Of a DNA stretch of 64,000 nt, positions 8,016 through 31,538 are shown piece after piece (the first letter of the stretch is position 1; the number at the start of each line of letters is the position of its first letter). Below the pieces are notes generated by a model. It was not told where the DNA came from. It worked only from the letters and a program-made list of their open reading frames with translations, and did not search any database. The translations under genes and the position numbers were made by a program. Origin of the DNA: Escherichia coli (GTDB lineage: Bacteria > Pseudomonadota > Gammaproteobacteria > Enterobacterales > Enterobacteriaceae); assembly GCF_044647545.1 (NCBI RefSeq), contig NZ_CP172818.1. One strand, given 5' to 3'.

Positions 8016-8732
8016 ATGAGACTCGAGTTTTCAATTTATCGCTATAACCCGGATGTTGATGATGCTCCGCGTATGCAGGATTACACCCTGGAAGCGGAAG
8101 AAGGTCGCGACATGATGCTGCTGGATGCGCTTATCCAGCTGAAAGAGAAAGATCCCAGCCTGTCGTTCCGTCGCTCCTGCCGTGAAGGTGTGTGCGGTTC
8201 CGACGGTCTGAACATGAACGGTAAGAATGGTCTGGCCTGTATTACCCCGATTTCGGCACTCAACCAGCCGGGCAAGAAGATTGTGATTCGCCCGCTGCCA
8301 GGTTTACCGGTGATCCGCGATTTGGTGGTAGACATGGGACAATTCTATGCGCAATATGAGAAAATTAAGCCTTACCTGTTGAATAATGGACAAAATCCGC
8401 CAGCTCGCGAGCATTTACAGATGCCAGAGCAGCGCGAAAAACTCGACGGGTTGTATGAATGTATTCTCTGCGCATGTTGTTCAACCTCTTGTCCGTCTTT
8501 CTGGTGGAATCCCGATAAGTTTATCGGCCCGGCAGGCTTGTTAGCGGCATATCGTTTCCTGATCGATAGCCGTGATACCGAGACTGACAGCCGCCTCGAC
8601 GGTTTGAGCGATGCATTCAGTGTATTCCGCTGTCACAGCATCATGAACTGCGTCAGTGTATGTCCGAAGGGGCTGAACCCGACGCGCGCCATCGGCCATA
8701 TCAAGTCGATGTTGTTGCAACGTAATGCGTAA
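8016..8732 (+). CDS. sdhB: Succinate dehydrogenase iron-sulfur subunit
   Basis: ORF track; 238 aa; Cys clusters CxxxxCxxC and CxxCxxCxxxCP. Confidence 0.96.
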   Translation: MRLEFSIYRYNPDVDDAPRMQDYTLEAEEGRDMMLLDALIQLKEKDPSLSFRRSCREGVCGSDGLNMNGKNGLACITPISALNQPGKKIVIRPLPGLPVIRDLVVDMGQFYAQYEKIKPYLLNNGQNPPAREHLQMPEQREKLDGLYECILCACCSTSCPSFWWNPDKFIGPAGLLAAYRFLIDSRDTETDSRLDGLSDAFSVFRCHSIMNCVSVCPKGLNPTRAIGHIKSMLLQRNA

Positions 8733-8912
8733 TTAATGTCGGGAATTCAGGAAATCTTTAAAAACTGCCCCTGACACTAAGACAGTTTTTAAAGGTTCCT
8801 TCGCGAGCCACTACGTAGACAAGAGCTCGCAAGTGAACCCCGGCACGCACATCACTGTGCGTGGTAGTATCCACGGCGAAGTAAGCATAAAAAAGATGCT
8901 TAAGGGATCACG

Positions 8913-12946: not shown

Positions 12947-13035
12947 TAGTTTAAGTTTCACCTGCACTGTAGACCGACGGGATGTGTCGGTCTACGGTTT
13001 AAAAGATAACGATTACTGAAGGATGGACAGAACAC

Positions 13036-15170: not shown

Positions 15171-15174
15171 ATGC

Positions 15175-15897
15175 TTATCGCGATGATTTTCGCTGCGCTA
15201 TCAGGGTAAATTTATAGTCATCGGTATTAAAAGCGTTGCGGCTATATTCAAACACCCGACCATCAACTAAATATCCACGCGATACTTTTTCAAGAATCGG
15301 CTTTGTCTGGCTGATATTAAGCAGACGGCTCATCTCTTCGGTTGGCATCAGAGGAATGATTTCCTGTTCGCTACGATCGATAACCATTTTCTTCACTTCT
15401 TCGATAAAGTGATATTTCGAATTTTCCATGACCTGCCAGGTGAGATCCGGGAACAACGCAAGCGGCATCCAGGTTTCTTCCAGCGCCATTGGCTTTTGCT
15501 TGCGATAGCGCACGCGCTTCACATGCCACACACGATCCTGCGGGGTGATTTGTAGCTGTTGCTGAAGAAAATCGTCAGCCGGAATCACTTCGAATATCAG
15601 AACTTCACTGTGTGTATCGACGTGACGGTCCGACAGTTTTTCATCAAAACTGGTTAACTGAAAAATATCGTAATTGACCCGCTCTTCTTTGACGTAAGTC
15701 CCGCTGCCCTGAATGCTTTCGAGGATCTGCTGCTCGACTAGCTGGCGCAAAGCCTGACGCACCGTAACCCGGCTGACGCCAAACTCTGTTTGTAGCGCTG
15801 ATTCAGTGGGTAACGCATCGCCAGGTTTAAGCTCGCCACGCGCAATTTGTTCACGAATGCGATCGGCAATCTGCCGGTATAAGGGCTTGTGTCCCAT
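15175..15897 (-). CDS. mngR: GntR-family transcriptional repressor of the mannosyl-D-glycerate operon
   Basis: ORF track; 240 aa; N-terminal GntR HTH, UTRA C-domain; divergent from mngA. Confidence 0.92.
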   Translation of the reverse strand: MGHKPLYRQIADRIREQIARGELKPGDALPTESALQTEFGVSRVTVRQALRQLVEQQILESIQGSGTYVKEERVNYDIFQLTSFDEKLSDRHVDTHSEVLIFEVIPADDFLQQQLQITPQDRVWHVKRVRYRKQKPMALEETWMPLALFPDLTWQVMENSKYHFIEEVKKMVIDRSEQEIIPLMPTEEMSRLLNISQTKPILEKVSRGYLVDGRVFEYSRNAFNTDDYKFTLIAQRKSSR

Positions 15898-16005
15898 TTT
15901 TAGTATCTCATTAATACGAATTTAACCATTATGCCCGATAAATTCATCCTGTAAATAATACAAATACAATACAAATAATTTCAATCAAGTGAAATTGATC
16001 ACATA

Positions 16006-17982
16006 ATGGTATTGTTTTATCGGGCACACTGGCGCGACTATAAAAACGATCAAGTGAGGATCATGATGAATCTGACGACTCTGACCCACCGCGATGCGTT
16101 GTGTCTGAATGCGCGCTTTACCAGCCGTGAAGAGGCCATCCACGCGTTGACTCAACGTCTTGCTGCTCTGGGGAAAATTTCCAGTACTGAGCAATTTCTG
16201 GAAGAAGTGTATCGCCGTGAAAGCCTTGGCCCGACCGCCTTAGGTGAAGGGTTGGCTGTGCCGCATGGCAAAACTGCTGCGGTAAAAGAAGCGGCGTTTG
16301 CGGTCGCCACACTCAGCGAGCCGCTTCAGTGGGAAGGCGTTGATGGCCCGGAAGCAGTTGATTTAGTGGTGCTGCTGGCGATTCCCCCCAATGAAGCGGG
16401 TACTACGCATATGCAACTGCTGACAGCGCTGACCACGCGCCTTGCGGATGATGAGATTCGGGCGCGTATACAGTCGGCGACGACGCCTGATGAGTTGCTC
16501 TCGGCGCTGGATGACAAGGGAGGCACGCAACCTTCTGCCTCTTTTTCCAACGCGCCAACTATCGTCTGCGTAACGGCCTGTCCGGCGGGTATTGCTCACA
16601 CCTATATGGCTGCGGAATATCTGGAAAAAGCCGGACGCAAACTCGGCGTAAATGTTTACGTTGAAAAACAAGGCGCTAACGGCATTGAAGGGCGTTTAAC
16701 GGCGGATCAACTCAATAGTGCAACCGCCTGTATTTTTGCGGCTGAAGTCGCCATCAAGGAGAGTGAGCGTTTTAATGGCATTCCCGCGCTTTCAGTGCCT
16801 GTTGCCGAGCCGATTCGCCATGCAGAAGCGTTGATCCAACAAGCGCTTACCCTCAAGCGTAGCGATGAGACGCGTACCGTACAGCAAGATACGCAACCGG
16901 TGAAAAGTGTCAAAACGGAGCTGAAACAGGCACTGTTGAGCGGAATCTCTTTTGCCGTACCGTTGATTGTCGCGGGGGGCACGGTGCTGGCGGTCGCGGT
17001 ATTACTGTCGCAAATCTTCGGGCTACAAGATCTGTTTAATGAAGAAAACTCCTGGCTGTGGATGTACCGCAAGCTGGGCGGCGGGCTGCTCGGAATTTTG
17101 ATGGTACCGGTGCTCGCGGCCTATACCGCCTATTCTCTGGCAGATAAACCGGCGTTAGCGCCAGGCTTTGCGGCTGGACTTGCCGCCAACATGATCGGCT
17201 CCGGGTTTCTCGGCGCGGTCGTTGGCGGATTGATAGCCGGTTACTTGATGCGCTGGGTGAAAAATCACTTGCGTCTTAGCAGTAAATTCAATGGATTCCT
17301 GACTTTTTATCTCTACCCGGTGCTCGGTACGTTGGGAGCGGGCAGTCTGATGCTGTTTGTGGTGGGGGAACCTGTCGCCTGGATCAATAACTCGCTTACC
17401 GCCTGGCTGAACGGTCTGTCAGGAAGTAACGCGCTGTTGCTGGGTGCCATTCTCGGTTTTATGTGTTCCTTTGACCTTGGAGGGCCAGTGAATAAAGCCG
17501 CTTATGCATTCTGCCTGGGCGCAATGGCGAACGGCGTTTACGGCCCGTATGCCATTTTCGCCTCCGTCAAAATGGTTTCGGCATTTACCGTAACCGCTTC
17601 CACGATGCTCGCACCGCGCCTGTTTAAAGAGTTTGAAATTGAGACCGGGAAATCCACCTGGCTGTTAGGGCTGGCAGGTATTACCGAAGGGGCGATCCCG
17701 ATGGCGATTGAAGATCCGCTGCGGGTTATTGGTTCGTTTGTGCTGGGCTCTATGGTAACGGGCGCTATTGTCGGTGCGATGAATATCGGCCTTTCGACAC
17801 CCGGTGCCGGCATTTTCTCGCTCTTTTTACTTCATGATAATGGCGCGGGCGGTGTTATGGCGGCAATTGGCTGGTTTGGCGCGGCATTGGTGGGGGCTGC
17901 AATCTCGACTGCAATTCTCCTGATGTGGCGGCGTCACGCGGTTAAGCATGGCAACTATCTGACTGATGGCGTAATGCCATAA
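16006..17982 (+). CDS. mngA: PTS 2-O-alpha-mannosyl-D-glycerate-specific EIIABC component
   Basis: ORF track; 658 aa; EIIA-EIIB-EIIC fructose-family PTS architecture. Confidence 0.92.
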
Positions 17983-17999
17983 ACAAAAAGGAAACGACG

Positions 18000-20633
18000 A
18001 TGAAAGCAGTATCTCGCGTTCACATCACCCCGCATATGCACTGGGATCGAGAGTGGTATTTCACCACCGAAGAGTCACGTATTCTGCTGGTCAATAATAT
18101 GGAAGAGATCCTGTGCCGACTGGAACAGGACAACGAATACAAATATTACGTACTCGACGGGCAAACGGCGATCCTCGAAGATTATTTCGCGGTGAAACCG
18201 GAAAACAAAGACCGTGTGAAGAAACAGGTAGAAGCCGGCAAGTTGATTATCGGCCCCTGGTATACCCAGACCGATACCACGATTGTTTCTGCGGAATCCA
18301 TCGTCCGTAATCTGATGTACGGAATGCGTGACTGCCTCGCGTTTGGCGAGCCGATGAAAATAGGTTATTTACCAGATTCCTTTGGCATGTCCGGGCAACT
18401 GCCGCATATCTACAATGGATTTGGCATTACCCGCACCATGTTCTGGCGCGGATGTTCGGAGCGCCACGGTACTGATAAAACCGAGTTTTTGTGGCAAAGC
18501 AGTGACGGTAGCGAAGTGACGGCGCAGGTGCTGCCGCTGGGCTACGCCATCGGTAAGTACTTACCTGCCGACGAAAACGGATTACGTAAACGCCTCGACA
18601 GTTATTTTGACGTGCTGGAAAAAGCGTCTGTAACCAAAGAGATTTTGCTGCCGAATGGGCATGACCAGATGCCATTGCAGCAAAATATCTTCGAAGTGAT
18701 GGATAAGCTACGTGAGATCTACCCTCAACGTAAGTTTGTGATGAGCCGCTTTGAAGAGGTATTTGAGAAGATCGAAGCGCAGCGAGATAATCTGGCAACC
18801 CTGAAAGGGGAATTTATTGATGGCAAATATATGCGCGTGCATCGCACCATCGGTTCTACGCGTATGGATATCAAAATTGCCCACGCGCGTATTGAAAATA
18901 AGATTGTTAATCTGCTGGAACCGCTGGCAACACTGGCCTGGACGTTGGGTTTTGAATACCACCACGGCTTGCTGGAGAAAATGTGGAAAGAGATCTTAAA
19001 AAATCATGCCCACGACAGTATCGGCTGCTGCTGTAGTGACAAAGTTCATCGCGAAATCGTCGCCCGCTTCGAACTGGCTGAAGACATGGCGGATAATCTG
19101 ATTCGTTTCTACATGCGCAAAATTGCCGACAACATGCCGCAGAGCGACGCCGACAAACTCGTCCTGTTTAACCTGATGCCCTGGCCGCGTGAAGAAGTTA
19201 TCAACACCACTGTGCGGCTGCGCGCCAGCCAGTTTAATTTGCGGGACGATCGCGGTCAGCCTGTACCGTATTTTATTCGCCATGCCCGTGAGATCGATCC
19301 AGGCCTAATCGATCGGCAAATAGTTCATTACGGTAATTACGATCCCTTTATGGAGTTTGATATACAGATCAACCAGATTGTCCCTTCTATGGGCTATCGC
19401 ACGCTTTATATCGAAGCGAATCAGCCTGGCAACGTAATTGCGGCAAAAAGTGACGCTGAAGGGATACTGGAAAATGCTTTCTGGCAAATTGCGCTCAATG
19501 AGGATGGTTCTCTGCAACTGGTAGATAAAGACAGCGGTGTGCGCTATGACCGGGTATTGCAAATTGAAGAAAGCTCTGATGATGGTGATGAATATGACTA
19601 TTCACCCGCAAAAGAAGAGTGGGTAATTACCGCAGCGAACGCGAAACCGCAATGCGATATTATTCATGAAGCCTGGCAGAGCAGGGCTGTTATCCGCTAT
19701 GACATGGCAGTGCCGCTCAATTTGTCAGAACGCAGCGCCCGGCAATCCACTGGCAGAGTAGGGGTGGTGTTGGTTGTCACTCTTAGTCATAACAGCAGGC
19801 GTATTGATGTGGATATCAATCTTGATAACCAGGCTGACGATCATCGCCTTCGTGTCCTGGTCCCTACACCTTTTAACACCGACAGTGTTCTGGCAGATAC
19901 GCAGTTTGGTTCGCTAACGCGCCCCGTGAACGACAGTGCAATGAACAACTGGCAGCAAGAAGGCTGGAAAGAAGCGCCGGTTCCGGTATGGAATATGCTC
20001 AACTATGTTGCCTTACAGGAAGGGCGTAACGGCATGGCTGTCTTTAGCGAAGGGTTACGTGAATTTGAAGTCATCGGTGAAGAGAAGAAAACCTTTGCCA
20101 TTACGTTGCTGCGTGGCGTGGGCTTACTGGGCAAAGAAGATCTGCTTTTAAGGCCTGGGCGGCCTTCGGGAATTAAAATGCCAGTCCCGGACTCACAACT
20201 ACGTGGTCTGCTTTCTTGTCGCCTAAGTTTATTGAGTTATACCGGTACGCCAACCGCCGCTGGTGTAGCTCAGCAGGCGCGAGCATGGCTGACTCCAGTA
20301 CAGTGTTACAACAAAATCCCATGGGATGTGATGAAGCTCAACAAAGCCGGATTCAACGTGCCGGAAAGTTATAGTTTGTTGAAAATGCCCCCAGTGGGAT
20401 GCCTGATAAGCGCACTTAAGAAAGCTGAAGACCGACAAGAAGTGATTTTACGGCTGTTTAATCCGGCTGAATCAGCAACCTGTGATGCGACTGTTGCTTT
20501 CAGTCGCGAGGTGATTTCTTGCTCAGAAACGATGATGGATGAACACATTACCACCGAGGAAAATCAAGGTTCAAATCTATCGGGGCCTTTTTTACCCGGC
20601 CAGTCACGGACGTTCAGTTACCGGCTTGCCTGA
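18000..20633 (+). CDS. mngB: Mannosylglycerate hydrolase (GH38 alpha-mannosidase)
   Basis: ORF track; 877 aa; downstream of mngA. Confidence 0.92.
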
Positions 20634-20689
20634 ATAGCAATCAAACCGAAGCCACATATGCGCGGCCAGATTGTTGACAAAGGGCGCTT

Positions 20690-20800
20690 TGTTCATGCCG
20701 GATACGGCATGAACGCTTTATTCGGTCTACAAAAGCAGGCAAATTCAATATATTGCAGAGATGATGTAGACACTGGCAAGCGTAGCGCATCAGGTAATTT
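20690..20800. repeat. Degenerate REP-like palindromic units downstream of mngB
   Basis: GCCGGATACGGCATGAACGCTTTATTCGGTCTAC and AAGCGTAGCGCATCAGG resemble REP consensus with several mismatches. Confidence 0.4.
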
Positions 20801-20885
20801 TGCGTTTATCTTCACTCTCAAGCCACGTATATGTGGCTTTATTTTTAACAAAATAATAACCCTGGGTGAGTTAATTATAATATAA

Positions 20886-21479
20886 TTATAAGTTAACTAA
20901 ATGTTAATATTGGCGGGGTGGATTTATGCCTTTATTAGTAATCCTGAAACTCTGCGTCGTATTAGCCAGTGACCAAAAAAAGAATTAAGGTCAACCGTGC
21001 TGTTTTTGCTTCGTCTCTTTTTATCTTTAATTGCCAACCGAAACTAATTTCAGCCTTATAACTCACACATTTTAAACATAAATGTCACTAAAGTTACCTT
21101 ATTGAAACATAATTAACATATTTGGTTGGTTTTGATATAAATCAATTTTTAATTCTTGAAAAAAATCTGCAAAACACGATAAATTGTCGTAGATCAAATT
21201 GGTGAGATCGTGACAATTTCGCTATAAATTGATCACTGTCGAAAAATGCAAATTTGCTCAATAAAAACCTGTTTATTGTAAGGATTTTGCGGCGTAATAT
21301 AATTACGGGATCAATTTGGTTTATTCATTAACATATTTGTAACTTTTTTATCATTGTCTTTTCCTCTTTTGATGAAATGGCAACGATAGAGGCGAGCAAA
21401 TAATTTTGTATTGGGGCATGCGTGTGACCCTTTCTAACGGGGTTCACTCTCGGAGTCTTCATGCGATGAGCAAGGAGTC
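20886..21479 (+). promoter_or_regulatory. cydAB multi-promoter control region (AT-rich, FNR/ArcA-regulated)
   Basis: About 600 bp AT-rich non-coding DNA upstream of cydA; contains the FNR-consensus sites listed separately. Confidence 0.6.
21132..21145. promoter_or_regulatory. FNR box (perfect TTGAT-N4-ATCAA) upstream of cydA
   Basis: TTGATATAAATCAA read directly; a second near-consensus TTGTCGTAGATCAA at about 21184-21197. Confidence 0.6.
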
Positions 21480-21482
21480 ATG

Positions 21483-23051
21483 ATGTTAGATATAGTCGAA
21501 CTGTCGCGCTTACAGTTTGCCTTGACCGCGATGTACCACTTCCTTTTTGTGCCACTGACGCTCGGTATGGCGTTCCTGCTGGCCATTATGGAAACGGTCT
21601 ACGTCCTTTCCGGCAAACAGATTTATAAAGATATGACCAAGTTCTGGGGCAAGTTGTTTGGTATCAACTTCGCTCTGGGTGTGGCTACCGGTCTGACCAT
21701 GGAGTTCCAGTTCGGGACTAACTGGTCTTACTATTCCCACTATGTAGGGGATATCTTCGGTGCGCCGCTGGCAATCGAAGGTCTAATGGCCTTCTTCCTC
21801 GAATCCACCTTTGTAGGTCTGTTCTTCTTCGGTTGGGATCGTCTGGGTAAAGTTCAGCATATGTGTGTCACCTGGCTGGTGGCGCTCGGTTCAAACCTGT
21901 CCGCACTGTGGATTCTGGTTGCGAACGGCTGGATGCAAAACCCAATCGCGTCCGATTTCAACTTTGAAACTATGCGTATGGAGATGGTGAGCTTCTCCGA
22001 GCTGGTGCTTAACCCGGTTGCTCAGGTGAAATTCGTTCACACTGTAGCGTCTGGTTATGTGACTGGCGCGATGTTCATCCTCGGTATCAGCGCATGGTAT
22101 ATGCTGAAAGGTCGTGACTTCGCCTTCGCTAAACGCTCCTTTGCTATCGCTGCCAGCTTCGGTATGGCTGCCGTTCTGTCTGTTATTGTTCTGGGTGATG
22201 AATCTGGTTACGAAATGGGCGACGTGCAGAAAACCAAACTGGCTGCTATTGAAGCCGAGTGGGAAACGCAACCTGCGCCTGCTGCCTTTACTCTGTTCGG
22301 CATTCCTGATCAGGAAGAGGAGACGAACAAATTTGCGATCCAGATCCCTTACGCGCTGGGCATCATTGCAACGCGTTCCGTGGATACTCCAGTTATCGGC
22401 CTGAAAGAACTGATGGTGCAGCATGAAGAACGCATTCGTAACGGGATGAAGGCGTACTCTCTGCTCGAGCAACTGCGTTCTGGTTCTACCGACCAGGCGG
22501 TTCGTGACCAGTTCAATAGCATGAAGAAAGACCTCGGTTACGGTCTGCTGCTGAAACGCTATACGCCAAACGTGGCTGATGCGACTGAAGCGCAGATTCA
22601 ACAGGCAACCAAAGACTCCATTCCGCGTGTAGCGCCGCTGTACTTCGCGTTCCGTATTATGGTGGCGTGTGGCTTCCTGCTGCTGGCAATCATCGCGCTC
22701 TCTTTCTGGAGTGTCATCCGCAACCGCATTGGCGAGAAAAAATGGCTGCTGCGCGCCGCGCTGTACGGTATTCCGCTGCCGTGGATTGCTGTAGAAGCGG
22801 GCTGGTTTGTGGCTGAATATGGCCGCCAACCGTGGGCTATCGGTGAAGTGCTGCCGACAGCTGTGGCGAACTCGTCACTGACCGCAGGCGATCTCATCTT
22901 CTCAATGGTGCTGATTTGCGGCCTGTATACCCTGTTCCTGGTGGCAGAATTGTTCTTAATGTTCAAGTTTGCACGCCTCGGCCCAAGCAGCCTGAAAACC
23001 GGTCGCTATCACTTTGAGCAGTCTTCCACGACTACTCAGCCGGCACGCTAA
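21483..23051 (+). CDS. cydA: Cytochrome bd-I ubiquinol oxidase subunit I
   Basis: ORF track 21480..23051; canonical start [12 protein letters not shown]; 522 aa. Confidence 0.96.
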
Positions 23052-23066
23052 GACAGGAGTCGTCAA

Positions 23067-24206
23067 ATGATCGATTATGAAGTATTGCGTTTTATCTGGT
23101 GGCTGCTGGTTGGCGTTCTGCTGATTGGTTTTGCAGTCACTGACGGTTTCGACATGGGGGTGGGCATGCTCACCCGTTTCCTCGGTCGTAACGACACCGA
23201 GCGTCGAATTATGATTAACTCCATTGCACCACACTGGGACGGTAACCAGGTTTGGCTGATCACCGCGGGCGGCGCACTCTTTGCTGCCTGGCCGATGGTC
23301 TATGCCGCTGCGTTCTCCGGCTTCTATGTGGCGATGATCCTCGTGCTGGCGTCTTTGTTCTTCCGTCCGGTCGGTTTTGACTACCGCTCCAAGATTGAAG
23401 AAACCCGCTGGCGTAACATGTGGGACTGGGGCATCTTCATTGGTAGCTTCGTTCCGCCGCTGGTGATTGGTGTAGCGTTCGGTAACCTGTTGCAGGGCGT
23501 ACCGTTCAACGTTGATGAATATCTGCGTCTGTACTACACCGGTAACTTTTTCCAGCTGCTTAACCCGTTCGGCCTGCTGGCAGGCGTGGTGAGCGTAGGG
23601 ATGATCATTACTCAGGGCGCAACCTATCTGCAAATGCGTACCGTGGGTGAACTGCACTTGCGTACCCGTGCAACGGCTCAGGTGGCGGCACTGGTGACAC
23701 TGGTCTGCTTCGCACTGGCTGGCGTATGGGTGATGTACGGTATCGATGGTTATGTTGTGAAATCAACAATGGACCATTACGCAGCCTCTAACCCGCTGAA
23801 TAAAGAAGTGGTTCGTGAAGCTGGCGCATGGCTGGTTAACTTCAACAACACGCCAATTCTGTGGGCTATTCCGGCACTGGGTGTGGTTCTGCCGCTGCTG
23901 ACCATCCTGACTGCACGTATGGATAAAGCCGCGTGGGCGTTTGTGTTCTCCTCCCTGACGCTGGCCTGCATCATCCTGACTGCCGGTATCGCAATGTTCC
24001 CGTTTGTGATGCCGTCCAGCACCATGATGAACGCAAGTCTGACAATGTGGGATGCAACTTCCAGCCAGCTGACGCTTAACGTCATGACCTGGGTTGCGGT
24101 GGTTCTGGTACCGATCATTCTGCTCTACACCGCCTGGTGCTACTGGAAAATGTTCGGTCGTATCACCAAAGAAGATATTGAACGTAACACCCACTCTCTG
24201 TACTAA
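23067..24206 (+). CDS. cydB: Cytochrome bd-I ubiquinol oxidase subunit II
   Basis: ORF track; 379 aa. Confidence 0.96.
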   Translation: MIDYEVLRFIWWLLVGVLLIGFAVTDGFDMGVGMLTRFLGRNDTERRIMINSIAPHWDGNQVWLITAGGALFAAWPMVYAAAFSGFYVAMILVLASLFFRPVGFDYRSKIEETRWRNMWDWGIFIGSFVPPLVIGVAFGNLLQGVPFNVDEYLRLYYTGNFFQLLNPFGLLAGVVSVGMIITQGATYLQMRTVGELHLRTRATAQVAALVTLVCFALAGVWVMYGIDGYVVKSTMDHYAASNPLNKEVVREAGAWLVNFNNTPILWAIPALGVVLPLLTILTARMDKAAWAFVFSSLTLACIILTAGIAMFPFVMPSSTMMNASLTMWDATSSQLTLNVMTWVAVVLVPIILLYTAWCYWKMFGRITKEDIERNTHSLY

Positions 24207-30456: not shown

Positions 30457-30578
30457 CGTGCGAATCATAAGCAGTTGAGTGATCTACATCGAAATTTTTG
30501 TTGCGCTCAAGTCTGAAATCAGTAATATATGCCGCCGTTGCCACGGGATATCAAACAAACCGAAAGCAACGAAAAAGT

Positions 30579-30654
30579 GGGTCGTTAGCTCAGTTGGTAG
30601 AGCAGTTGACTTTTAATCAATTGGTCGCAGGTTCGAATCCTGCACGACCCACCA
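30579..30654 (+). tRNA. lysT: tRNA-Lys (UUU)
   Basis: 76-nt GGGTCGTTAGCTCAGTTGGTAGAGCAGTTGACTTTTAATCAATTGGTCGCAGGTTCGAATCCTGCACGACCCACCA; anticodon loop CTTTTAA. Confidence 0.97.
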
Positions 30655-30730
30655 ATCGCTAAGGTGGAAGCGGTAGTAAAACGTGAAGGATAACGTTGCG
30701 TCAGCAACGGCCCGAAGGGCGAGACGAAGT

Positions 30731-30754
30731 CGAGTCATCCTGCACGACCCACCA
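30731..30754 (+). other. 3' fragment of tRNA-Lys (acceptor/T-arm remnant) in the lysT-valT spacer
   Basis: ATCCTGCACGACCCACCA is identical to the last 18 nt of the tRNA-Lys genes, with no 5' half. Confidence 0.6.
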
Positions 30755-30789
30755 CTAACATAGTTAGTTGTAGTATCCAGCGTAGTATC

Positions 30790-30865
30790 GGGTGATTAGC
30801 TCAGCTGGGAGAGCACCTCCCTTACAAGGAGGGGGTCGGCGGTTCGATCCCGTCATCACCCACCA
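30790..30865 (+). tRNA. valT: tRNA-Val (UAC)
   Basis: 76-nt GGGTGATTAGCTCAGCTGGGAGAGCACCTCCCTTACAAGGAGGGGGTCGGCGGTTCGATCCCGTCATCACCCACCA. Confidence 0.97.
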
Positions 30866-30867
30866 CC

Positions 30868-30943
30868 GGGTCGTTAGCTCAGTTGGTAGAGCAGTTGACT
30901 TTTAATCAATTGGTCGCAGGTTCGAATCCTGCACGACCCACCA
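30868..30943 (+). tRNA. lysW: tRNA-Lys (UUU)
   Basis: Identical to lysT, 76 nt. Confidence 0.97.
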
Positions 30944-30994
30944 CTAATTACGGTGGGTTCGGTGGAAGTAGTTTGTAGTATCCAGCGCAGTATC

Positions 30995-31070
30995 GGGTGA
31001 TTAGCTCAGCTGGGAGAGCACCTCCCTTACAAGGAGGGGGTCGGCGGTTCGATCCCGTCATCACCCACCA
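30995..31070 (+). tRNA. valZ: tRNA-Val (UAC)
   Basis: Identical to valT, 76 nt. Confidence 0.97.
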
Positions 31071-31073
31071 CTC

Positions 31074-31148
31074 GGGTCGTTAGCTCAGTTGGTAGAGCAG
31101 TTGACTTTTAATCAATTGGTCGCAGGTTCGAACCTGCACGACCCACCA
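31074..31148 (+). tRNA. lysY: tRNA-Lys (UUU) variant copy, 75 nt, with a 1-nt shorter T-loop
   Basis: Same as lysT except T-arm reads GGTTCGAACCTGC instead of GGTTCGAATCCTGC. Confidence 0.85.
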
Positions 31149-31196
31149 ATTTTAAAGATTGGTTCCGAGTAGAAATCTTTCAGGTAACACCCGTAT

Positions 31197-31272
31197 GGGT
31201 CGTTAGCTCAGTTGGTAGAGCAGTTGACTTTTAATCAATTGGTCGCAGGTTCGAATCCTGCACGACCCACCA
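31197..31272 (+). tRNA. lysZ: tRNA-Lys (UUU)
   Basis: Identical to lysT, 76 nt. Confidence 0.97.
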
Positions 31273-31305
31273 TCCTGAATGATTAAAGCAGCATAATCCC
31301 GCAAG

Positions 31306-31381
31306 GGGTCGTTAGCTCAGTTGGTAGAGCAGTTGACTTTTAATCAATTGGTCGCAGGTTCGAATCCTGCACGACCCACCA
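31306..31381 (+). tRNA. lysQ: tRNA-Lys (UUU)
   Basis: Identical to lysT, 76 nt. Confidence 0.97.
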
Positions 31382-31384
31382 ATG

Positions 31385-31412
31385 TAAAAAAGCGCCCTAA
31401 AGGCGCTTTTTT
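31385..31412 (+). terminator. Rho-independent terminator of the tRNA operon
   Basis: AAAAAAGCGCCCTAAAGGCGCTTTTTTG hairpin plus T-run directly after lysQ. Confidence 0.85.
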
Positions 31413-31538
31413 GCTATTCAGGCATCCTCAATTTCACTGTGTAACCTGATGACATCTTCAGAGCTTACTGTGCAAGCAACTCTACGTCGGTGGAATTAGG
31501 CGTAATTCGAGTGACTTTTCCCCACCATTCGACTATCT

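Follow-up and report, generated by a model that had tools for sequence, protein, structure and literature searches.

The stretch of DNA between mngB and cydA in the window (the whole 64,000-nucleotide piece of the Escherichia coli contig NZ_CP172818.1 that was analysed) corresponds to the known oxygen-responsive control region of the cytochrome bd-I operon (cydAB), preceded by a tail of mngB made up of a repeat and a terminator. Very probably, this gap is long as a result of three functional units being placed end to end: (i) the 3' tail of the mngAB transcript (20634-20847), which consists of a BIME-1 repeat followed by an intrinsic terminator; (ii) an AT-rich, multi-promoter cydABX control region (about 20880-21410), at which FNR and ArcA would act; and (iii) a structured mRNA leader (21411-21485), with a first hairpin of conserved shape and a second, invariant one in which the Shine-Dalgarno sequence would be paired. 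The presence of an FNR/ArcA control region before cydA is already textbook knowledge from K-12, and the leader RNA is apparently undescribed. Directly observed are the identity or alignment to the K-12 sites, the membership of the repeat in its family, the fold statistics, and the conservation and covariation across genera; what is inferred is that the O-type allele of the window is regulated like that of K-12, and that the leader has a role.

The gene order of the window (gltA-sdh-suc-mngRAB-cydABX-tol-pal) is that of an Escherichia/Shigella-type chromosome, with an overall identity of 98-99% to K-12 and, for the upstream 20.6 kb, a top identity among E. coli of 99.0%. The open reading frame of mngB ends at 20633 and the first in-frame ATG of cydA is at 21480, which gives a gap of 846 bp (20634-21479), in agreement with the unusual length of about 850 bp pointed out in the initial annotation. 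RefSeq places the start of cydA at the second ATG (21483), with a gap of 849 bp (20634-21482). In the alignment, this second ATG is kept across genera (for instance, ATAATG in Enterobacter mori and AAGATG in Trabulsiella) and it is separated by 5 nt from the Shine-Dalgarno GGAG upstream of it. Due to this conservation and better spacing, 849 bp is taken as the true extent of the gap and 21483 as the start. Downstream, the gap directly abuts cydA-cydB-cydX, as in the K-12 model: it is followed by the open reading frames 21480/21483-23051 and 23067-24206, which match the cydA, cydB and cydX of the RefSeq records used for alignment. The distal 477 bp of the gap and its final 74 bp are identical to K-12. 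The possibility that the whole gap is a single foreign insertion was rejected, since the mngB-cydA adjacency is common to Kluyvera, Enterobacter, Superficieibacter and RIT691, and the gap that was measured in Kluyvera is of roughly 800 bp. The features of the gap are collected in Table 1.

Table 1. Features of the mngB-cydA gap and of the start of cydA (positions are those of the window).
Feature	Position	Strand	Description	Basis
Candidate decayed duplicate of the mngB terminator	20649-20681	+	AAGCCACATATGCGCGGCC...; left side of BIME-1	
BIME-1 (RIP/RIB-type) dispersed repeat	about 20676-20816	+	copy mutated but complete	paralogue alignment
Inverted y-REP of BIME-1	20697-20730		ends in CTAC (20727-20730)	alignment
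Sigma-70 promoter-like sequence within BIME-1	20726-20754	+	TCTACA-17-TATATT	consensus scan
L linker of BIME-1	20731-20765		35 nt, contains GCAAATTCAATATATTGCAG; IHF-like core ATTCAATATATTG at 20743-20755	
REP of BIME-1	20766-20795		opens with GTAG (20766-20769)	alignment
Intrinsic terminator of mngAB	20820-20847	+	stem AAGCCAC/GTGGCTT, loop GTATAT, T-run	fold and terminator scan
ArcA site 1	20880-20910	+	three direct repeats; identical to K-12 cydA1 site ATATAATTATAAGTTAACTAAATGTTAATAT	predicted
ArcA site 2 region	21059-21110	.	core CTCACACATTTTAAACAT at 21062-21079; identical to K-12 cydA2 site	predicted
Recombination crossover	21107-21110	.	ACAT; left as in K-12, right as in O157:H7	
Divergent "O-type" core of the cydA control region	21111-21408	+	identical to O157:H7, about 75% to K-12	
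FNR-1 site	21132-21145	.	TTGATATAAATCAA; centre at -53.5 of P1	predicted; scan and K-12 alignment
Promoter P1	21156-21192	+	-35 TTGAAA 21156-21161, -10 TAAATT 21180-21185, inferred start ~21192	consensus scan
FNR-2 site	21184-21197	.	TTGTCGTAGATCAA; covers P1 -10 element and start	predicted; K-12 alignment
Most conserved promoter block	21216-21303	+	contains GCTATAAATTGATCAC and the downstream promoter	alignment
Downstream promoter	21276-21281 and 21298-21303	+	TTGTAA-16-TATAAT	consensus scan
ArcA site 3	21325-21357	-	GTTACAAATATGTTAA at 21328-21343; allelic variant of K-12 cydA3 site	predicted
cydA leader RNA	21411-21485	+	sole match in the window	covariance model, 102.9 bits
Leader helix 1	21424-21430 with 21440-21447	+		
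Leader GGA motifs	21452-21454 and 21474-21476	+	22 nt apart; second inside Shine-Dalgarno	
Leader helix 2	21455-21464 with 21470-21479	+	CUUC (21457-21460) pairs with GGAG (21474-21477)	
Shine-Dalgarno sequence	21472-21477	+	AAGGAG; GGAG inside helix 2	

In the mngB-proximal part of the gap, the initial annotation had noticed REP-like debris at 20690-20800. The palindromes are real, but they do not correspond to debris: they belong to a whole, though mutated, BIME-1, an element defined by a REP and an inverted REP around a long conserved L linker (PMC3333891). Like the BIME-1/RIP/RIB elements, the window element contains an inverted y-REP, a 35-nt IHF-like linker and a REP, its inverted REPs bear the CTAC and GTAG tags, and it has many dispersed relatives per genome: in 5,425 E. 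coli genomes, a 121-bp query (20686-20806) is found at 18-49 places per genome among the matches listed, with a median of at least 40. The copy aligns end to end with five paralogues (satP-mog, rnpB-yhaC, tsx-yajD, yvcK-uvrB and psuK-fruA). It differs from the paralogue consensus by about ten substitutions, which weaken both canonical REP stems and yield a new perfect 10-bp palindrome (20691-20714). A y-REP consensus found no match in the region at up to three mismatches, and no repeat features are annotated in the mngB-cydA gap of NC_000913.3; the recognition of the element as a diverged copy comes from the BLAST search for paralogues. Within the linker, 20743-20755 is a predicted IHF-type core that matches the IHF-binding consensus (WATCAANNNNTTR) with one mismatch.

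Repeats of the BIME-1 type mostly occur at transcription-unit 3' ends, and the single copy of the gap is located between the mngB stop codon and a terminator. The near-perfect hairpin described earlier (AAGCCACGTATATGTGGCTT) is present, one base away from the position given for it (20820-20839 instead of 20821-20840), and is followed by TTTATTTTT. With a 7-bp stem, a 6-nt loop, a folding energy of -10.2 kcal/mol (z = -4.4) and a U-run, it has the form of an intrinsic terminator, situated 187 nt past the mngB stop codon. Terminator-like hairpins, without a BIME, are found at the equivalent place after mngB in Kluyvera, Enterobacter and RIT691. This shared placement supports the earlier suggestion that the REP element and the hairpin mark the end of the mngB transcript. 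Further upstream, 20649-20681 is a direct repeat of 20820-20852 (73% over 33 nt) which has lost its folding (z = +0.8), and is possibly a decayed duplicate of the terminator.

BIME-1 and its surroundings might, alternatively, act on cydA, as an IHF-bound architectural element holding an internal, far-upstream and oxygen-independent cydA promoter. The promoter-like TCTACA-17-TATATT within the repeat is listed for cydAB in K-12, as a constitutive RpoD promoter of the mngB-cydA spacer, a region with several RpoD holoenzyme peaks (Shimada 2014); an aerobic sigma-70 ChIP peak of K-12 (v2 770039) maps to about 20838 (Myers 2013); and ArcA site 1 begins just ~40 bp beyond the mngAB terminator. That same terminator, however, separates TCTACA-17-TATATT from cydA. 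Besides, BIME-1 is absent from the E. coli genomes in which cydA is preceded by other genes (roughly 2,250) and from the other genera with mngB-cydA, yet all of these conserve the proximal control region. In the published K-12 sources that were compared, no transcription start was found for this promoter-like sequence. On balance, an action on cydA is rather unlikely, and the preferred reading of 20634-20847 is that of a 3' tail of the mngAB transcript.

It is far less probable that the gap hides an unannotated protein gene. In some genomes PGAP calls a 75-aa hypothetical protein from the 75-codon open reading frame at 20658-20885, but this frame is largely BIME-1 repeat and terminator sequence, has no Pfam match on record and is unannotated in NC_000913.3. 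Two short frames located in the leader of cydA were also considered and rejected: (i) a 21-codon frame (21418-21483) which ends in TGATG, overlapping the cydA start, but is disrupted in Enterobacter and RIT691 by indels of 1-2 nt; and (ii) an ATG-CGA-TGA mini-frame of two codons (21461-21469) which has its own GGAG, but whose ATG is replaced by CTG in other families (Serratia, Photorhabdus and Hafnia among them), while the surrounding nucleotides are invariant.

In K-12, two FNR motifs, TTGATATTTATCAA (770333) and TTGTTCTCGATCAA (770385), lie under the FNR ChIP peak of cydA, and an FNR site is placed at -53.5 of the cydA promoter (Myers 2013). When the offset between K-12 v2 and the window is set by the identical ArcA site 1, 770333 becomes 21132 and 770385 becomes 21184, and the predicted FNR boxes of the window align column for column with both K-12 motifs. 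FNR-1, reported in the initial annotation as a consensus box, is an exact and perfect match, the only perfect TTGAT-N4-ATCAA within the 64-kb window. FNR-2 is the second, near-consensus box of that annotation and the counterpart of TTGTTCTCGATCAA; it agrees with the consensus at 8 of the 10 half-site positions and its centre is 52 bp from that of FNR-1, which in the alignment falls at -53.5 of promoter P1. At a tolerance of one mismatch, the window shows no enrichment of the FNR consensus (6 matches versus 2.6 expected); in consequence, the case for FNR rests on the perfect match, on the alignment with the K-12 ChIP-peak motifs and on conservation in an enterobacterial alignment of 18 sequences. 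In this alignment, the half-sites of FNR-1 are kept in 16 of the 18 sequences, and the TTG and ATCAA of FNR-2 are conserved. The spacers and flanks vary freely while the half-sites are fixed, and the same is true between the two E. coli alleles described below.

Both hexamers of P1 (TTGAAA-18-TAAATT) are likewise conserved across genera in the 18-sequence alignment. Position -288 of K-12, which we take to be the published transcription start of P1, maps to 21192, a placement consistent with FNR-1 at -53.5; the cydAB promoters of K-12 are numbered P1 to P5. Footprinting and promoter mapping of K-12 cydAB were reportedly carried out by Cotter in 1997, Govantes in 2000, and Lynch and Lin in 1996. 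Since FNR-2 overlaps P1 at both its -10 element and its start, the location of this box fits repression by occlusion: under anoxia, FNR bound to the downstream box would block RNA polymerase at P1.

Three ArcA ChIP-seq peaks with predicted sites have been described at cydA of K-12 (Park 2013), and the three corresponding direct-repeat sites are all present in the gap of the window. Site 1 holds the window's only perfect GTTAA-N6-GTTAA (20892-20907) and is partly conserved in the genera with mngB-cydA synteny; the AACAT...TTAACAT repeats of site 2 are conserved across genera; and the variant found at site 3 keeps the direct repeats, with TTATTAACAT.TTTGTAAC conserved across genera. Over the whole window, the ArcA direct-repeat consensus gives 12 matches versus 3.1 expected, a number reached by none of 100 shuffles, and 4 of these matches are in the gap. 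The G+C content of the cydA control region is 26-35%. In K-12, H-NS has been flagged for the mngB-cydA spacer (Shimada 2014), and the activation of cydAB by ArcA reportedly consists mainly in the relief of H-NS silencing.

In a region so rich in AT, FNR and ArcA motifs might arise as chance matches, the gap then being a mere spacer, and the unremarkable number of one-mismatch FNR matches would suit this view. Nevertheless, the 64 kb contain a single perfect FNR box, the two FNR boxes and the three ArcA sites all fall on K-12 sites located under ChIP peaks, and the half-sites are fixed while the spacers vary, both between two E. coli alleles and across 18 sequences. A chance origin is thus hardly credible, and the reading of 20880-21410 as an oxygen-responsive control region is followed here.

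For the comparison across genera, a degenerate CydA N-terminus pattern was used, which retrieved 120 Enterobacterales loci, and 18 sequences were aligned. In these loci, the homology to the window upstream of cydA is limited to about 420 bp next to the gene. Conservation is seen in these blocks: (i) the ArcA-type repeats at 21066-21080 and 21105-21116; (ii) both halves of FNR-1; (iii) the -35 and -10 of P1; (iv) the TTG/ATCAA of FNR-2; (v) 21216-21303; (vi) GGGATCAATTTG; and (vii) ArcA site 3. The block 21216-21303 has 96.5% identity between the two E. coli alleles and is near-invariant across genera. A K-12 transcription start at -174 (Mendoza-Vargas 2009) maps to 21305, beside the conserved TTGTAA-16-TATAAT, and the anaerobic sigma-70 ChIP peak of K-12 maps to about 21308 (Myers 2013).

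The layered oxygen regulation that had been proposed for the gap is therefore borne out by two FNR boxes and three ArcA sites that align with the K-12 sites under ChIP peaks. Of the checks suggested with that proposal, the comparison with published cydAB maps finds the FNR and ArcA sites where the K-12 data put them, and the cross-genus footprint gives the result expected of a weight-matrix scan, namely conserved FNR and ArcA sites with varying spacers. Phosphorylated ArcA would bind direct-repeat sites at three places, and FNR repression and ArcA activation would together lead to a peak of cydABX expression at low oxygen. By this reasoning, the allele of the window is probably regulated like that of K-12.

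The two alleles are, in any case, different. The gap as a whole finds no full-length match above 91.6% identity among 5,426 complete E. coli genomes. From 15172 to 21110 the window is base-for-base identical to K-12 (5.9 kb without a difference), while the flanks of this tract diverge by 1-2%. Differences from K-12 begin at 21111, and those from O157:H7 end at 21106. Between 21111 and 21408, 82 aligned positions differ from K-12, with an identity of 71% over 21111-21215, and from 21409 onward all strains agree. The hybrid allele has the junction sequence GTCACTAAAGTTACCTTATTGAAACATAATTAACATATTTGGTTGG; in JGI metagenome contigs the junction, taken as 46 nt, does not appear, and the combination of a K-12 left side and an O157:H7 right side occurs in none of the 5,426 complete E. 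coli genomes.

According to rough counts from BLAST coverage and identity bands, together with inspected loci, E. coli genomes can be divided into: (i) mng upstream and a K-type core (about 3,170 genomes); (ii) other upstream genes and an O-type core (about 2,250 genomes); (iii) other upstream genes and a K-type core (9 genomes, for instance HH97); and (iv) mng upstream and an O-type core, the arrangement of the window (0 genomes). The O-type core is carried by O157:H7, by B2 strains and by the window. Judging from these sequence comparisons, the gap of the window is a rare recombinant allele. Given a 5.9-kb tract identical to K-12 and flanks that are 1-2% divergent, the mngR-mngAB block looks like a recent import by recombination, with its right crossover in the ACAT of 21107-21110. 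The identity of the O-type core is 97% with "E. coli E69", 94% with E. albertii and 84% with Citrobacter; that of the K-type core of K-12 is 79-80% with each of these three, and about 80% with every genus sampled. Since the O-type core is the closer of the two to E. albertii, E69 and Citrobacter, the cydAB promoter of K-12 appears to be an imported allele, foreign to Escherichia.

Compared with cydAB(X) of K-12, the window shares the general layout: two FNR boxes 52 bp apart, FNR-1 at -53.5 of P1, three ArcA sites, an AT-rich tract of the H-NS type and a downstream promoter at about -174. By contrast, the central 298 bp (21111-21408) are a different allele, the spacers of both FNR boxes differ, FNR-2 matches the consensus at 8/10 positions instead of the 9/10 of K-12, and ArcA site 3 departs less from the consensus than its K-12 counterpart. 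Due to the weaker FNR-2 and to the 71% identity over 21111-21215, the quantitative behaviour of the window allele may differ from that of K-12. For 30 years, work on the cydAB promoter has dealt with the K-12 allele, from which the second allele diverges by about 25%; in view of this divergence, models of the oxygen response quantified on K-12 may not transfer to O157:H7, to B2 strains or to the window.

Switched intergenic regions and horizontal regulatory transfer have been described in E. coli (Piggy; Thorpe 2018), and the cydA promoter fits this pattern. As in switched regions, the cydA promoter core is far more divergent than the neighbouring genes and exists as discrete alleles reshuffled by recombination; unlike them, the cydA alleles are homologous and keep all the known sites, and in the window the crossover (21107-21110) falls within the control region. 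Oren reportedly also described horizontal regulatory transfer in E. coli, in 2014.

The final ~75 nt before the start of cydA are the most conserved stretch of the region, nearly invariant in the 18 sequences. In Enterobacteriaceae, all the distinct leaders (37/37) fold a hairpin at the equivalent place, with differing stem sequences. An anchor-based count gives 78% pairing versus 70% in permutations (maximum of 75% in 1,000), and in an unfitted MAFFT alignment 6 of the 8 pairs of helix 1 have changed on both sides, with a covariation score reached by none of 500 shuffles. In an alignment fitted to the model, and for this reason biased towards the structure, helix 1 is 96% paired and 7 of its 8 pairs are compensated. 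With the covariance model, 63 of 100 Enterobacterales loci have a match, exactly one each and always next to cydA; these loci extend to Serratia, Hafnia, Edwardsiella, Providencia, Photorhabdus, Xenorhabdus and Proteus. RNAalifold on the plain MAFFT alignment missed helix 1 due to register shifts; the helix was recovered by single-sequence folds, by the anchor-based count and by the covariance model. Helix 2 is invariant in 56 distinct sequences and, hence, without covariation; this invariance could reflect the binding of a protein or of the ribosome instead of pairing.

In Salmonella, CsrA raises the translation of cydABX 3.5-fold. The leader would set the translation of cydA, possibly via CsrA acting on the two GGA motifs, and CsrA bound to the upstream GGA might free the Shine-Dalgarno sequence; this possible link to CsrA is an indirect one, drawn from a different genus, and the two GGA motifs are candidate binding sites. 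The leader is similar to leaders that sequester the Shine-Dalgarno sequence or are controlled by CsrA (glgC; moaA for activation), in that CUUC can pair with GGAG and two GGA motifs are found 22 nt apart, one of them within the Shine-Dalgarno sequence. It differs from those systems in having no match to an Rfam family and a helix 2 without covariation. With the support of covariation in helix 1, the leader is a candidate for the element behind the post-transcriptional regulation of cytochrome bd-I known from Salmonella.

A broader proposal is put forward tentatively, with the balance still leaning somewhat against it: that the leader is an undescribed cis-regulatory element of Enterobacterales and a possible CsrA or sRNA target for cytochrome bd-I and, besides, that the K-12 promoter was imported while the core of the window is the ancestral Escherichia one, fused to a K-12-type mng block. 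The recombinant allele and the conserved leader are, in any case, two modest and checkable leads. In a scan of 19500-22500 against Rfam 15 (E <= 1), the cydA leader reached no family threshold; the sole match was a weak, sub-threshold fragment of ES036, which lies within the linker of the BIME.

The mng block of the window, which comprises mngR, mngA, mngB and the cydA-distal part of the gap upstream of cydA (5.9 kb), shows zero differences from K-12 MG1655, while the flanks on either side are 1-2% divergent from that reference strain. On the basis of this contrast, the block looks like a recent recombination import. In E. coli strains without mngAB, among them the O157-type loci L002 and L005, other genes are found 5' of cydA, i.e., (i) a tetratricopeptide-repeat gene, as in L004, L006 and L007, provisionally placed in phylogroup B2 by their serotype and context; or (ii) glm-linked hypothetical genes. 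The non-coding gaps upstream of cydA in these strains measure 0.8-1.5 kb. Immediately 5' of the cydA control region there appears to be a hotspot at which gene content changes.

Coordinates of the features in the window
Feature	Position
sdhB-sucA spacer	8732-8744
sucB-sucC spacer	12976-12987
mng block	15172-21110
Direct repeat, left copy	20649-20681
ORF (WP_001324497.1)	20658-20885
ES036 (CssrF) match	20739-20756
Direct repeat, right copy	20820-20852
Third FNR-like sequence	21229-21243
cydA leader	21411-21485
lysT-valT-lysW cluster	30575-31505

Within the gap, the dispersed REP-pair repeat BIME-1 is flanked by a 33-nt direct repeat (73% identical copies), which may be a trace of BIME insertion or may have arisen by chance. 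The left of the two copies resembles a duplicate of the mngB terminator that has since decayed. A 75-codon ORF, which RefSeq lists as a hypothetical protein for some E. coli genomes, consists mostly of BIME-1 repeat and terminator sequence and, in consequence, is probably a spurious call. The sub-threshold Rfam match to the ES036 (CssrF) sRNA in the BIME-1 linker (21.9 bits vs. a threshold of 37.6) probably reflects the overlap of that sRNA family with a BIME.

Closer to cydA, a third FNR-like sequence, TTGATCACTGTCGAA, has a perfect left half-site and a weak right half. It falls within the most conserved promoter block and is absent among the published FNR sites accessible to this analysis. 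The cydA leader RNA, for which no matching family was found in Rfam, is conserved and structured, as seen from the window and the loci L015-L121 compared with it: of its two hairpins, helix 1 shows covariation and helix 2 is invariant and pairs with the Shine-Dalgarno sequence. A single copy of the leader was found at each of 63 loci out of the 100 from Enterobacterales.

Length differences from K-12 were observed elsewhere in the window. The sdhB-sucA and sucB-sucC spacers have ~130 and ~195 bp fewer, respectively, probably owing to REP/BIME copy-number differences. Finally, alignment of the lysT-valT-lysW tRNA cluster with K-12 yields several overlapping pieces and a shorter span, which points to a tRNA-Lys/Val repeat number other than that of K-12.
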